Shown piece by piece: positions 1 to 9,000 of a DNA stretch of 64,000 bases (the first letter of the stretch is position 1; each line of letters begins with the position of its first letter). Made by a program: the position numbers. The stretch is from Gammaproteobacteria bacterium. Its GTDB lineage: Bacteria > Pseudomonadota > Gammaproteobacteria > SG8-11. The stretch lies in assembly GCA_031363085.1 (NCBI GenBank), contig JANLTU010000196.1:53585-117584 (forward strand), given 5' to 3'.

Positions 1-3000
1 TCGTCGCTGATCTCGAAGCTGCGGGCCTGCTCGCCGAAGTCAAGCCGCACAAGTTGATGGTGCCACGGGGTGACCGCACCCACGCCGTCATCGAACCGCT
101 GCTCACCGACCAGTGGTTCGTGAAAGTCGCACCGCTGGCCGAGCCAGCGATTAAAGCCGTGGAAACCGGCCAGATCCGCTTCGTACCCGACAACTGGAAG
201 AACACTTATTACGACTGGATGCGCAATATTCAGGACTGGTGCATCTCGCGGCAAATCTGGTGGGGGCATCGCATCCCCGCCTGGTATGACGCCGCCGGAA
301 ATATTTATGTCGGACGCAGCGAAGCCGAGGTGCGCGCAAAACATAAACTCGTGCCCAGTGTGACGCTTACCCAAGACAGCGACGTGCTGGACACTTGGTT
401 TTCGTCGGCATTGTGGCCGTTCTCCACACTCGGCTGGCCGGAAAAGACACCTGAACTGAAAGCATTTTATCCAACCGCAGTGCTGGTGACGGGTTTCGAT
501 ATTATTTTCTTCTGGGTGGCCCGCATGATCATGATGGGTCTGAAATTCACCGGCGAAGTGCCGTTTCACGAAGTCTATATTCACGGACTGGTGCGCGACG
601 CACACGGCCAGAAAATGTCGAAATCCAAAGGCAACATCCTCGACCCGATCGACTTGATCGACGGCATCACACTGGAAACGCTGGTGAAGAAACGCACCAC
701 CGGCCTGATGCAACCCGACATGGCCAAGCGCATCGAAAAAGCCACGCGCGATGAATTTCCCAACGGTATTCCTGCGTTTGGCACCGACGCGTTACGCTTC
801 ACTTTCGCGGCGCTGGCCTCCACCGGGCGCGACATCAACTTCGACCTGGCGCGCATCGAAGGCTATCGCAACTTCTGCAATAAACTGTGGAATGCAGCGC
901 GCTACGTACTGATGAACACCGAAGGCCAGGATGCTGGACAGGGAAGTCCGAATGCCGCGAGCGCAGGAGCGGCCACCGGCGCCCAGGGCGGCGAATTGCA
1001 ATTGAGTTTGCCGGATTGCTGGATTCTTAGCCGTCTGCAAGAAACCACCCGGCAGGTGCATGAAGCGCTTGAGCACTATCGACTCGACCATGCCGCGCAG
1101 GCAATCTACGAATTCTTGTGGAACGGCTACTGCGACTGGTACCTTGAGTTGACAAAATCGGTGCTGACTTCCGCCGACAGCACGCCCGCGCAACAACGTG
1201 GTACGCGCCATACGCTGGTGCAGGTGCTGGAGCGCGCGCTGTGTCTGGCGCATCCCATCATGCCGTTCATCACCGAGGAAGTCTGGCAACGTGTGGCGCC
1301 TTTGGCGGGTGTCAGCGGCGCCACCATCATGTTGCGCGACTACCCCAGCGTAAATGCAAAGTTGATCGACACTCGCGCCGCGACCGACATGGACTGGATT
1401 ATGAATTTCGTGCTGGGCGTGCGCAAAATTCGCAGCGGCATGAACATCGCCCCGAGTAAACCACTGCCGGTGTTGCTGCAAAATGGCTCGGCTGAAGATC
1501 AGCGCTTGCTAACCGAGAACCACAATTTCGTAGTCGCGCTCGCACGCATCGACACCATCACCTGGCTCGACGCCGCCGCGCCACCGCCGGAATCAGCCAC
1601 GGCCTTGGTCGGCGAAATGAAAGTGTTGATTCCAATGGCGGGACTGATCGACAAAAACGCCGAGCTGACGCGTTTGGCGAAAGAAATGGACCGGCTCAGC
1701 GGCGAAGTCGAACGCATCGGCGCGAAGCTGGCTAATCCCAGCTTCGCCGACAAAGCGCCTGCGGCCGTGGTCGACAAGGAACGCGCGAAATTACACGACA
1801 CGCAGTCGGCCTTAGACAAACTGCGCGAGCAACATACGCGCATTGCCGCAATGTAGCGGCTTAGGCCACCTTAACCGCACAGGCCGCTGGAAGGATGATG
1901 CGCGACTCGAACGGCCGGAATTCAGCGTCACTTGTTGACTTTTTCGTGAAGCGGATCTCGACTTTTCCACCGAGGTTCTCGACGAATTTCCGAATCGCGT
2001 CCATTCCCACACCACGACCGGAGATGTCGCTCACGTTCGCTGCAGTCGACACGCCCGACTGAAAAACCAGATCGGCCAATGCGTGGTCATTCAACTCCGC
2101 GTTGGCGTGCACCAAACCTTGTGCGGCGGCTTTTTCCTTGAGCTTGCGCAGGGCCAACCCGCGACCATCATCCGACAGCGCCAGCACTACCCCCCCGTCT
2201 TCCTCGCGCACATCCAACGTGATCGTACCCCGCTCGGGCTTGCCATGTGCCTTACGTTCCGCGCCGGTTTCAAGGCCATGATCCATGGCATTGCGGAAAC
2301 CATGCGTGAATACGTTCTTCATCACCTGTGCAACTTCGACCGCCAGACGGATGCCGTTATCTTTGATAACGATGTGCGGTGCGACCTTACCAAGTTTTTG
2401 CGCCAGTTCCGGCATCGAACGCGTGATGGCATCCAGCAGCGCGGGAATCGATTCCGTGCCGATGGCACCTGAGATTGACTTCACGGTTTTCACGGCGCTG
2501 CGCAATGCACTCACGTCATGCTCATTGACGTGCTCCAGCACGACCCGCAGCTTGTCGATCAGCATTAAATCGACATACACGCCGTCGGACGAGGTGTTGG
2601 AAAGTTTTTCCTTGTTAATCGTTGCGTAGCTTTCGATTCGCTGACGAGTACGAGACAACTCCTCCAGCATTTTGCTCTTGTCCCAAAACGAATCGAGATT
2701 CTTACGCAGCACGTCGTAGGAAGTTTCGGCTTCATGTGCCACATCGGTGATGCCCATGAATCCGTAGGTGCGCGCGTTGCCCTTGATGGTGTGCATGTTA
2801 CGGAACAGGGTCGCGACAATATCGGCCGATGCGTTGCTCGCCGCGTTAATGAGTTTTTCGTTTTCGTCCAGAAAGCGCGTAGCGTCCTTGATAAATCCGA
2901 TGAACTTGTCCTGACCGACCGACAAAATCTGCCCGATGACCTGCAACTCGGACTTCTGCTTTTCGGCCTCTGCCTGCAAGCCGCGCAACTCGGTGACGTC

Positions 3001-6000: not shown

Positions 6001-9000
6001 ATCATGTTCGCCAGTTCCGACAGCAGTTCGTTGACGTGGCGAAAGCTAGGCTCGACGGCATGGAGCTGGGTCTTACGCGCGGCAATCGCGGCGCGAACGT
6101 TTTCTTCTTCCGATTGCAGTGTCATGTAACCGCGGCACCAAGCGCTTTCCAGCGGTAGCAGACTGAACAGTTCTCCGTAAATGATTTTGTCTTTTACAAT
6201 GTAGGGCGGGTCGACCTCGACATTTAAACCCTTGAAGGCGGCACGGAACGCGCTCAGCGTGAATTCCTTCACGCCTGCCACGAATTCGTTGGGATAGTGA
6301 CGATTGAACAAAAACGTATCCACTAGCTCTTTCAGGGGCTCGAATTCACCGTGCACATAAACGCCGGCGATCACGTTGCGCAATTCGACCGGCAGATCGC
6401 CGACCGCCATCTGTGCATCCACGCGCAGAAAAATCGGTAGCTCGGCGCGGGCCTTGTGAATTGCCAGCGCCAGCTCGACCTCTTCGCGTCCATGGCCGTC
6501 GCTATGCGACAGAAAGATTGCGCCCAGATCAACGCTGCGGCTCAAAATGCTCAGCACCGTGCTCTTGCTCGCTTGATAACCATCCAGGTTGGAGTTTTCG
6601 ATAAATTTTTTCAGCGCACGCAGCTTGTCTTTGTCGTGTTCGACGACTACAACTTTGCTCCGTATTCCGTGCTGCTCTGCAGGCGGCTGTGTCGACACCT
6701 TGATCGTGGCGGTTAAATTCATACGGTCCTCTCGAAGTATGGGTTATTCAAAATAGCTCCAGTGCCCCGGCCTCAACCGGTTCTTCCACTTTTTGCAGTT
6801 TGTCCAAACGAAATTCGCGCGTGCTGTACACCGAGACGAACAAACTCGCGCAAAAGGTGGTTTCCTCGTTTGCTTGTGCACTGACGTGAGTATCGTAAGA
6901 AAACGACAAACTCTTGAGGTGTTTGAGACTCTCTTTGCGCAAGCGATTTGGCGTAGACATCCCCATATGCGGAAAGCAACTGCCCAGATCGCGCTTAAAA
7001 GCGCCGCAAAAACGGTTGCCCAGCTCACCCAGAAAATCGTAGTAACGCGCTGTGGTGAGTTGCTCCAGCGGCATCCGCAAGGCGTCGGCCGCATAACGCA
7101 GAGAAGGTGCGCTGCAAGTTGAATGCAGCAGCACAAAAATACGGAAGTCGTACGACGATATTGTCAGCATGGTGAATTCCGGCGCGGCCACCTGCTCTGG
7201 ATTAGTCAAGGGCTGGAGGGTCCATGACGCGTAGCTGTCGGTCTTCAGCGACTCCTCCAGACTGTCAGCCAGCAGCTTGGCCAAAGAATCTTTCGCGGTC
7301 TGTGGAAACGCTGCCGGGGCGGGCGTCATGACGGCTCCTGAAGTCCAAGTTGATCCACTTTGGCATTAAGCGCGTGTACCGCCGTCAGGATCATCTTGCC
7401 GCTGGCTTGAATGTCTTGAAATGTTGCGATAGTGACCGCATCGCTTTTATGCAGGCAGTCCTTGTAGCCGGCACTGAATGTTTCCGAACGCGTCGCCAAA
7501 GATTTTACTTCGGAGGCCACTACCGCGAAGCCGCGCCCGGCTTCACCGACACGCGCCGCTTCGATGGTGGCGTTCAAGGCGAGAATAATGATTTGTTGCA
7601 CGATTTCAGCGAAATCGGCGTTGCGTTGCTGCATCACATTGTTGGACTGCACCAGCTTGCCCATGCCGTCGTTCCAGCGCTCGATGCTTGACAGGATCGT
7701 CAGCAAGTCGGTTACATCTTTTTTAATCCCGGCGCGGCAATTTTCGATGCGTACTTGGTGCTCGGAAACTGTGCGCTCCAAAGCGCGTTGGCTGTGTGCG
7801 TAATCGGCGCGCAAAGTAATGAGTTCCTGTTCGCGCGCGGCTGTTTCCGCGCGCGCCTGAGCCAGTCGTGCGACGTACACGGACTCCGCGTCGCGGACGA
7901 AACGCACATGAGCCTCCTGCATATTGTCAAGCTCAGTCGCCGGAACTTTTTTGGACAATTCATCCTGTAACTGCGCACGCTCCGACTGCCACTGCGCTTG
8001 CAGACGCGGAATATAAATCCTGCGCCAGAGAACCGCGCTGAATACTGCGCCGACTGCGATACCACCTACCCATGCCAGCATGATGCTCATTACTTAGTGT
8101 TCTTCAGGTGCCACAAATTTTCTTCCGTCGGATGCTTCGACATGCTTGTCGGAGATGCACTTGCCATCCTGCAATGCACAAGAACCTCGCCCCAGCCAAG
8201 GACGGAAGCTCTCGTCAAGATATCGACATGAGGAAAAGAAACTAAAGCTCTTCTTGTTGACCTGCGTACTGCTGCGGATCAGGTGTTACCTGCCGGGTGA
8301 AGCCTGCTATGGCGCGCGGCGAAACTTTTTCCGCACTTTGCATTTGGGCGAACTCTGGATTTATGGGCGTGCCCTTAAGTCGGTTCGAAGCGGAGGTGGC
8401 TTACAGCGGAAAACGACGGCGGATAACCAATGCGCCGCACAACGCAGCAATAAATAAAACACCAAAGGCGCCGGTGGCAACTTTATCGTTGTCTTTGTTG
8501 ACCGCCTTAAGTTGCAATGGCGCCAAGCTCGCGAATTCAGAATCTGCGGAACTCGCCGCGCTCAGAGTAACGATGTATTGCACATCACCGTCAATAACAC
8601 TGTCGTCCACCCCAATGACCCGCACGGTTTTGGGCCGATCCCAATCTTCGGTGGTAAACGTAAGTCCTCTGGGAGCTACGGTCCCTTCCGTCGCCATTGA
8701 GCTGGTCAAAGAAATATTCACGTCACCTGAGGGCTCTTTGTTCAGCACCACGGTAAAGGCGGCTACACCGCTACTTTCACTGGTTACTAAAACCTCTGGG
8801 GCAACAACGATAATTTTCGCCGCTTTTCCGTTGGGTTGTACCGGCTTGTTGCCGATATCGAGATTGACCAAACCAACTTTCAATACGGGAAGCATCCGGT
8901 AATTTGCATCGTCGCTGTCGGTGGGGTCGATCAACACGTTGTAGGCGACATCGCCATTCGCGAAATTATCATTTACACCGGTGACGGTTACCGTTTGTGC

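Follow-up and report, generated by a model that had tools for sequence, protein, structure and literature searches.

A stretch of 64,000 nucleotides from a gammaproteobacterial genome (assembly GCA_031363085.1, contig JANLTU010000196.1, positions 53,585 to 117,584 of the forward strand; hereafter the window) contains five co-directional genes arranged head to tail on the minus strand between positions 8090 and 1861. Their products, of 254, 193, 336, 122 and 1115 amino acids in gene order, are a truncated methyl-accepting chemotaxis protein (mini-MCP), two CheX-type proteins (CheX-A and CheX-B), a stand-alone CheY and a membrane-bound sensor kinase of the CheA type that lacks the P5 domain. These genes had originally been predicted to form a compact chemosensory-like operon with no CheW, CheR or CheB and with a coupling logic different from that of canonical arrays. 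Here, we have examined the domains, folds and catalytic residues of the five products and the linkage and conservation of the genes, all of which are matters of observation, and have compared the locus with 83 non-redundant loci fetched from other genomes. As a whole explanation, we propose that the five genes are one conserved signalling unit of chemotaxis ancestry without a dedicated CheW, a proposal to which we give even chances.

The five genes and their products

The tight packing described in the original prediction was recovered for all five open reading frames (ORFs; Table 1). The stop codon of the mini-MCP gene and the start codon of the CheX-A gene share an ATGA overlap (7326-7329), and the remaining gaps within the module are 25, 57 and 77 nucleotides, the last of which becomes 179 nucleotides if the kinase starts at Met35. 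The kinase ORF probably begins 34 codons too early, since close homologues align from Met35 and the first transmembrane helix follows directly after it. Upstream, a spacer of 310 nucleotides separates the mini-MCP gene from an unrelated gene for an M4 protease, and downstream lies the 3′ part of valS on the opposite strand. A scan for promoters and terminators found fewer promoter-like sites than occur in shuffled sequence.

The kinase shows Pfam matches to 4HB_MCP, HAMP, GAF, Hpt (E = 6.4e-10) and HATPase_c and no CheW match at E<=1, which agrees with the earlier description of a membrane CheA-type Hpt/HATPase kinase without P5. Two transmembrane helices (~44-66 and ~352-372) enclose a periplasmic 4HB domain and are followed by HAMP (371-422), GAF (446-578), PAS (~620-740), P1/Hpt (778-866), a putative P3 (~875-935) and P4 (~936-1112), after which the protein ends. 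The 61 related kinases align with it only from residue ~583-600 on, whatever their N-terminus. A profile of this core, built from 29 sequences, matches Escherichia coli CheA over P1 (residues 9-106) and P3-P4 (residues 283-495; 6s1k, E = 6.7e-57) and, in addition, every solved CheA P4 (CheA P4 chains in PDB at E of 1e-44 to 7e-57), and NCBIfam CheA models match kinase residues 929-1092. The phospho-accepting His and the N, G1, F and G2 boxes are invariant in the 29 core sequences and of the CheA type; His806, within FRNMHTIKGNARTYG, aligns with the E. coli CheA P1 motif AAHSIKGGA and corresponds to column H222 of the core alignment. In the P3 region, Pfam H-kinase_dim is not matched, and the profile aligns continuously with residues 283-330 of E. 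coli CheA just before P4; we take kinase residues 877-935 (VYVDLMLIDKL...) to be the equivalent of the CheA P3 hairpin.

Approximately 180 conserved residues precede P1, in which Pfam PAS is matched in 15 of the 29 core members, with a weak match to PAS structures in PDB. Pfam CheW was matched in none of the 29, and these two results rule out a CheW-like domain hidden in the region before Hpt. At the other end, the kinase stops ~25 residues after P4 and thereby leaves no room for a P5 domain of ~130 residues; its last residues (...FESRIILPAACAV) presumably correspond to the ...LPLTLAI of CheA, that is, to the end of P4 at the P4/P5 boundary. With P1 and P4 present and P5 absent, the kinase would be CheA-like in mechanism and is not a CheA by current definition.

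The N-terminal portion of the kinases varies widely across genomes, with 4HB-HAMP in Burkholderia, 4HB-GAF in Oleiphilaceae and Hahellaceae, 7TMR-DISM in Aquabacterium, Reg_prop plus Y_Y_Y in Teredinibacter and a soluble PAS-PAS arrangement in a metagenome-assembled genome (MAG) of Methylococcales; almost all of these kinases are membrane proteins. Such free variation of sensor domains in front of a constant PAS-P1-P3-P4 output core argues that the kinase is the sensor of the system. Teredinibacter sp. ISS155 (L045:11718-20201) possesses two tandem module-type kinases of ~1400 amino acids with a Reg_prop beta-propeller and Y_Y_Y, which are carbohydrate-type sensors joined to the same PAS-P1-P3-P4 core, together with two CheY genes.

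The stand-alone CheY of the original prediction proved to be a complete receiver (Pfam Response_reg, 7e-24; best NCBIfam match CheY). Residues D8, D9, D53, T83 and K105 are all present and at least 95% conserved over 78 genomes, as are ~60 of the 122 positions, and W102 occupies the position of the Tyr106 switch residue of E. coli CheY.

The two proteins between the mini-MCP and CheY had been described as CheC/CheX-type paralogs, one of them with a degenerate receiver, and fold comparisons as well as profile searches against PDB bear this out and rule out an unrelated family. An AlphaFold2 model of CheX-A, built on 22 homologues (pLDDT, a per-residue model confidence score, of 85), retrieved only CheX or CheC structures among its top eight Foldseek matches in PDB (including 3h2d, 3hm4, 3iic, 1xko, 3hzh_B and 6vpw; TMt<=0.75), and the family profile likewise matched CheX/CheC chains only, with the alignment running across the active-site helix. 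Its E102-x2-N105 motif and P127 are invariant among 31 sequences, and D98 is invariant or nearly so. CheX-B matches Pfam CheX at 4.1e-11 and 3iic and 6vpw in the PDB profile search, and its model (pLDDT 78) consists of an N-terminal receiver fold, similar to the receivers 3h5i and 3hdv (TMt 0.75-0.78) and to FleQ REC, and a C-terminal CheX fold similar to 3hzh_B. Residues E236-x2-N239 and P265 are invariant in the family alignment. In place of the phospho-acceptor Asp, the receiver has S, P, T, C or A, and its Thr and Lys positions vary; as a receiver fold without the acceptor Asp and without retained Thr and Lys, the N-terminal domain is a pseudo-receiver. A profile-profile comparison relates CheX-A to CheX-B at E = 2e-5 with 17% identity, and the two were always found as a pair.

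Both CheX paralogs end in a free hexapeptide, G-[EA]-[LMI]-[ED]-[LFM]-F, which was observed in 75 genomes for CheX-A and in 81 for CheX-B and is disordered in both models (pLDDT<50). This shared C-terminal G-E-L-E-[LFM]-F tail is a feature new here, and we know of no described CheX protein with a conserved disordered C-terminal hexapeptide. The same disordered tail on two highly divergent paralogs has the signature of a short linear docking motif for one shared partner. It recalls two short disordered C-terminal motifs of chemotaxis proteins, the CheY-binding peptide of CheZ and NWETF, the MCP pentapeptide that binds CheR and CheB. The tail and NWETF have a hydrophobic residue at -4, the acidic residue E at -3 and a terminal Phe at -1 in common, whereas the tail has Leu, Met or Ile in place of the essential Trp and is carried by predicted phosphatases rather than by a receptor.

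The mini-MCP consists, as had been predicted for a protein of 254 amino acids reduced to a transmembrane helix and a signalling tip, of one transmembrane helix (residues 3-22) and a Pfam MCPsignal match (2.5e-17) that is confined to residues 161-213, the hairpin tip; periplasmic, HAMP, PAS and other input domains are absent. An alignment of 31 members shows a variable stalk (~30-125), a conserved hairpin of 120 residues and two family-specific motifs, TFERWH (W139) and KNDLITTxTFQDxQAGGKM (F224, Q225, Q228), which lie ~44 residues on each side of the turn. W139, F224, Q225 and Q228 are invariant in mini-MCPs and absent from ordinary MCPs. The tip itself (163-202) is 70-78% identical to full-length MCPs of related loci, and similarity drops outside it. 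The methylation consensus [ASTG][ASTG]xx[EQ][EQ]xx[ASTG][ASTG] was found in only 2 of 72 mini-MCPs, at non-conserved places, compared with 9 of 11 canonical MCPs from the same loci, in which the sites lie ~-94/+95 from the tip and thus past the end of the ~70-residue C-arm of the mini-MCP. Having neither an input domain nor a conserved methylation site, the mini-MCP is a signalling stub without sensor or adaptation function.

The length from the transmembrane helix to the GRGF turn falls into two classes, ~153 residues (~32 genomes) and 167-169 residues (~30 genomes), which differ by exactly two heptads, and the returning C-arm is constant at 68-73 residues (~10 heptads). This quantised stalk length is also a feature new here. 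Alexander and Zhulin are said to have defined in 2007 heptad classes of MCPs from 24H to 64H with symmetric arms, the smallest having 12 heptads per arm; with a C-arm of ~10 heptads and an N-arm of ~153 or ~168 residues, the mini-MCP fits no described class.

Table 1. The five genes of the module and features within them (positions in the window; residue numbers refer to the respective protein)
Feature	Position	Strand	Description
Mini-MCP gene	7326..8090	-	254 aa; transmembrane helix, variable coiled-coil stalk ~30-125, conserved ~120-aa signalling hairpin ~128-245
Mini-MCP transmembrane helix	8025..8084	-	residues 3-22, then RR; from sequence; hydrophobic N-terminal segment across the alignment
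Canonical MCP hairpin tip	7485..7604	-	mini-MCP residues 163-202; nearly invariant in the family
CheX-A gene	6748..7329	-	193 aa; divergent single-domain CheX fold
CheX-A C-terminal hexapeptide GALELF	6751..6768	-	family consensus G-[EA]-[LM]-E-[LFM]-F
PseudoREC-CheX-B gene	5712..6722	-	336 aa; receiver fold ~20-140, CheX ~150-310, helix, GELELF tail
CheX-B C-terminal hexapeptide GELELF	5715..5732	-	G331, L333, E334 and F336 invariant in the family alignment
Stand-alone CheY gene	5286..5654	-	122 aa; complete receiver
Sensor kinase gene	1861..5208	-	ORF of 1115 aa; probable true start Met35 at 5106
Family-conserved kinase core	1864..3456	-	residues 585-1115: S-helix, PAS, P1, putative P3, P4
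His806 codon	2791..2793	-	predicted phospho-accepting His of P1, within FRNMHTIKGNARTYG

Conservation, hosts and the search for CheW

A search of the protein collection with the pseudoREC-CheX protein (CheX-B) yielded 1377 relatives at E<=1e-3, and 397 GTDB species were found to hold relatives of it. All five families occur together in 59 of the 83 loci compared, most of the others being cut by contig ends, and the kinase gene is adjacent in 48 of the 51 loci flanked on each side by 4 kb or more. Mini-MCP, CheX-A, CheX-B and CheY follow one another in an almost invariant order, relative to which the kinase gene is upstream in 28 loci, divergent in 18 and downstream in 7; it is sometimes doubled. 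An all-against-all clustering of ORFs from the 83 loci found the next real family in at most 10 loci, which rules out a conserved sixth gene such as CheW, CheR, CheB, CheD or CheZ. The recurrence of the same five families, as the sole conserved ones, places the gene arrangement far beyond chance, and conservation of the gene neighbourhood, which the original prediction had put forward as a check, is borne out.

Most hosts belong to Burkholderiales (the Burkholderia cepacia complex, Pandoraea, Aquabacterium, Rhodoferax and Curvibacter), Rhodocyclales and marine Gammaproteobacteria (Oleiphilaceae, Hahellaceae and Teredinibacter), and scattered MAGs represent other phyla. In B. cenocepacia, B. 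ambifaria and their relatives, the module is located on chromosome 2. Its proteins carry generic database names such as 'chemotaxis protein CheX', 'response regulator' and 'MCP four helix bundle domain-containing protein', so that genome-based censuses of chemotaxis systems probably miss it. In Hahellaceae (L006:3641-4774 and L007:1734-2792), a gene for an HD_5 (HD-GYP-type) protein lies directly downstream of the divergent module kinase, which hints at a link to cyclic-di-GMP in that clade only; it is not kept outside the clade, and a conserved HD-GYP output is thereby ruled out.

No CheW, CheR or CheB had been seen in the cluster, and none was detected among the window ORFs scanned or as a conserved gene of the 83 loci. 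A six-frame search of the whole window, with E. coli CheW and three P5-bearing CheAs as queries, returned only the kinase itself at E<=10, and Pfam searches of ~30 further large ORFs of the window revealed no che gene; neither the kinase nor an adjacent gene thus contains a CheW or P5 domain by either approach. The single CheW match among the loci was ruled out as an intact gene: in a Propionivibrio MAG (L050:2043-5156), a fragment of an ISL3 transposase continues in frame into the final ~60 residues of a CheW domain. This chimera lies directly upstream of the module kinase and beside a PilJ-Hpt-HATPase kinase that is also devoid of P5.

Around the module, the window contains several genes of other kinds. 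The protease gene (8401-12813, minus strand) encodes a secreted thermolysin-type (M4) metalloprotease of 1470 amino acids with an FTP propeptide, a MAM-like domain, ~7 tandem repeats of ~100 residues and, at the C-terminus, a hydrophobic segment followed by RRR that resembles a sorting signal. In other genomes, the gene and the module are unlinked. A protein of nearly equal length (1469 amino acids; 52959-57368, minus strand), with many fibronectin-III repeats and C-terminal leucine-rich repeats, was considered as a possible paralog of the protease and found to be unrelated. A cluster of four genes (16940-21680, minus strand) for an ABC ATPase, an ABC-2 permease, an ABC_transp_aux/DUF7088 protein and a DUF4340 protein resembles the GldA/F/G-type auxiliary transport systems. 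The only further signalling-type gene seen in the window encodes a stand-alone PilZ-domain protein of 213 amino acids (31189-31830, minus strand).

A proposed signalling cycle and the role of the mini-MCP

The intact catalytic residues, the folds and the gene linkage point to a cycle that leads from the kinase to CheY and on to the CheX proteins. The kinase would be a CheA-type P1-P3-P4 protein that lost P5 and gained its own input domains (here 4HB, HAMP, GAF and PAS); it would sense directly, and P4 would phosphorylate His806 of P1, as in CheA. Phosphorylated P1 would then hand the phosphoryl group to Asp53 of CheY, the presumed diffusible output; through protein-protein contact, CheY most likely affects a target in motility or behaviour, and it would be quickly reset by the predicted phosphatases CheX-A and pseudoREC-CheX-B. 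The tails may tether both CheX proteins to one shared partner, for which CheY is favoured by analogy with the C-terminal peptide of CheZ, and the non-phosphorylatable receiver of CheX-B probably docks on P1 of the kinase.

Within this cycle, the mini-MCP would serve as a membrane-anchored scaffold that neither senses nor adapts. Its canonical tip would form trimers of dimers and most likely joins the module into, or next to, ordinary chemoreceptor arrays via CheW and CheA encoded elsewhere, and the TFERWH/TFQDxQAGGKM patch, ~6 heptads above the tip, would hold the partners from the module. We favour this role over the others considered below, if only tentatively and at rather less than even chances, because the constraint on the tip matches that on ordinary tips and because the stalk comes in discrete lengths that do not depend on the kinase. 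No correlation was detected between stalk length and the distance from the transmembrane helix to the phospho-accepting His of the kinase (Spearman 0.14, p 0.38, a comparison confounded by phylogeny); that distance is 223-273 residues, or ~440, or not applicable where the kinase is soluble. This suggests that something other than the kinase sets the stalk length. If the stalk were a continuous helix, its 153-169 residues would place the tip ~23-25 nm below the membrane, in the range of ordinary receptor tips; this estimate, made with rough figures for HAMP and for the helix rise, is only suggestive.

The next most probable role, which we nevertheless consider unlikely, is a direct one, in which the tip of the mini-MCP would bind the P5-less kinase (for example at P3/P4 or PAS) and control or cluster it, so that the five genes would form a chemosensory system complete in itself, in which receptor and kinase meet at an interface of a new kind. 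Such contact would be in keeping with the linkage of mini-MCP and kinase in nearly all fully flanked loci despite three positions of the kinase gene, with the lack of an intact CheW in every locus, with the mini-MCP invariants W139, F224, Q225 and Q228 beside the tip and with the retention, in the kinase core, of a conserved PAS domain to which no role is assigned. However, the tip is constrained as ordinary tips are, and to our knowledge the only partners of these are CheW-like domains and other receptor dimers; moreover, the stalk length does not track the kinase linker, and a kinase with its own sensor needs no receptor for input. These points also bear on the different coupling logic of the original prediction: the composition of the module stands as described, but coupling of tip to kinase by a new logic is not established, given the variable sensors of the kinase itself and a mini-MCP without sensor or adaptation region. 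A tip so similar to ordinary ones, on a stalk that does not follow the kinase, fits binding to CheW and CheA in trans equally well or better.

Two further possibilities give the mini-MCP or the module a different task. The mini-MCP may be a self-clustering platform, assembled by trimer-of-dimer contacts in small membrane clusters without CheW and without contact to the kinase, which would recruit both CheX proteins by their GELE[LFM]F tails, so that kinase and phosphatase together shape the phosphorylated CheY signal at the membrane. An identical disordered tail on two very divergent paralogs, implying one shared docking site, the conserved family-specific patch on the mini-MCP and the membrane location of nearly all kinases are all compatible with a platform, and E. 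coli chemotaxis provides an established example of kinase and phosphatase placed together. We regard it as improbable, though somewhat less so than the possibility discussed next, as nothing favours binding of the tails to the mini-MCP over CheY, P1 or PAS, and as it leaves unexplained both the whole canonical tip, beyond trimer contacts, and the two-heptad quantisation of the stalk.

The least probable of the readings is that the module is an accessory to the main pathway and acts on the principal CheY or on the arrays, as a phosphate sink, by extra CheX phosphatases that the mini-MCP brings to the array, or by biasing the output of the array in the manner of a locked receptor, with the sensor kinase merely tuning the effect. 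The canonical tip, the receptor-like stalk length and the CheY-like nature of the module CheY would suit such a role, and hosts such as the B. cepacia complex are flagellated and chemotactic. We think it very unlikely, considering that a dedicated and highly conserved CheY and a kinase are present in almost every genome, which indicates an internal cycle of kinase, CheY and phosphatase, and that no gene of the main pathway is linked to the module.

Several observations weigh against the proposed cycle with an array-joining scaffold. Every phosphotransfer and binding step in it is one that we infer. An intact CheW was found within 10 kb in none of the 83 loci, and the tight linkage between the mini-MCP and a P5-less kinase is what direct, CheW-free contact would predict as well; the absence of CheW applies at the level of the locus and of the whole window. 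The stalk-length argument presumes a continuous helix and approximate HAMP dimensions. The Pfam CheX match of CheX-A (E = 0.0048) lies under the family threshold, its fold having been supported later by the model. CheY as the partner of the tails is a guess made by analogy: the tail has no counterpart of the Trp in the MCP pentapeptide, and a CheZ-like helix would be interrupted by its Gly at -6. In addition, the module CheY has a Lys at what we take to be the equivalent of E. coli Ile95 on the FliM/CheZ-binding face. Together with the high conservation of CheY and its Trp at the switch position, this Lys points to several partners that are conserved and to a target surface different from the one that serves for FliM in E. 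coli.

Relation to known chemosensory systems

Literature searches, which included surveys of CheA and CheW domains, found no description of the module, and an earlier mention is possible; a paper on CheA of a non-canonical kind in Halomonas deals with a Wsp-like system in which CheW is present. The architecture thus appears to be undescribed, as the original prediction had supposed, and it matches no named Che class. Like canonical systems, the module has a kinase with CheA-type P1 and P4, a putative P3 and CheA-specific boxes, a CheY, putative CheX-type phosphatases and an MCP tip, and the missing P2 does not set its kinase apart, since absence of P2 is common among canonical CheAs. In contrast to them, it has no P5, CheW, CheR or CheB, its kinase carries transmembrane and sensor domains, and its receptor has neither a sensor nor an adaptation region. 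Wuichet and Zhulin reportedly distinguished 19 chemosensory classes (F1-F17, Tfp and ACF) built on CheA, CheW, CheR and CheB. The module fits none of them, as neither an intact CheW nor a CheA with a CheW domain is present in the module, the window or the 83 loci, and no CheR or CheB is found among the window ORFs scanned or conserved across the loci. In a survey of 13,673 CheAs, the CheW domain was found in 100% of them, P1, P3, P4 and P5 were the core domains, and CheA was described as a protein that 'lacks a sensor domain' (Berry et al. 2023, PMC10782961).

The MAC1 and MAC2 systems, which are experimentally uncharacterised, have a methyl-accepting coiled coil inside the kinase and CheB/CheR domains or genes (bioRxiv 10.1101/2022.05.07.491037). 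The module resembles them in that receptor and kinase functions reside in one protein and a CheW bridge is not needed, and it differs in having no MCPsignal in its kinase, a separate mini-MCP, two CheX paralogs and no linked CheB or CheR. With the CheX proteins of Borrelia burgdorferi and Thermotoga maritima (3hzh, 1xko and 1squ), the module paralogs share the fold, the E-x2-N helix and a Pro ~22 residues downstream; they differ in their low identity (9-17%), the fusion of one of them to a pseudo-receiver, the tails and their paired occurrence. CheA3 and CheA4, the split kinase of Rhodobacter sphaeroides, form a kinase-phosphatase pair that acts on a dedicated CheY; both keep P5, sit in a CheW-containing cytoplasmic array and have no sensor domains. 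They are a precedent for CheA domain sets that depart from P1-P5 (PMC6829392).

Other Hpt-HATPase kinases without P5 were also encountered (P0079 on scaffold L005, P0085, P0070 and the PilJ-Hpt-HATPase kinase of L050). They share with the module kinase the combination of transmembrane or sensor domains, Hpt and a CheA-type HATPase with no CheW domain, and differ from it in sequence (25-33% identity) and in operons that contain no mini-MCP and no CheX-A. On the metagenome scaffold (L005:10001-14861), a HAMP-Hpt-HATPase kinase of 1066 amino acids without P5 is accompanied by a CheY, a 297-amino-acid protein with a C-terminal CheX domain and without a GELE[LFM]F tail, and a lysine-rich protein of 89 amino acids; the operon has no mini-MCP, and upstream of it, on the opposite strand, are two ordinary MCP genes. 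As these four kinases are also fused to sensors and devoid of P5, loss of P5 with gain of a sensor appears to be a wider theme, of which the five-gene module is the largest coherent family encountered.

Surveys treat P5 as part of the universal core of CheA and CheW as a core component of every chemosensory system, and the module departs from both: a CheA-type kinase without P5 and with interchangeable sensors still travels with an MCP tip in ~400 species. Its hosts include the B. cepacia complex, which is clinically relevant and genetically tractable. Within this one system there are an MCP hairpin that is minimal and free of adaptation, two naturally paired CheX paralogs and a putative C-terminal tether motif not described before. 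Should the tip bind CheW in trans, the module would represent a new way to plug a sensor-kinase pathway and its phosphatases into chemoreceptor arrays, and if it does not, a new receptor-kinase interface would be implied. The boldest interpretation, which we hold to be unlikely, is an unrecognised and widespread chemosensory class in which a canonical tip directly contacts or organises a sensor-fused, P5-less CheA without any CheW-like domain, with a pair of CheX proteins tethered by their tails. If true, such a CheW-free class would couple receptor to kinase by a second route, independent of the CheW/P5 lattice and existing beside it.

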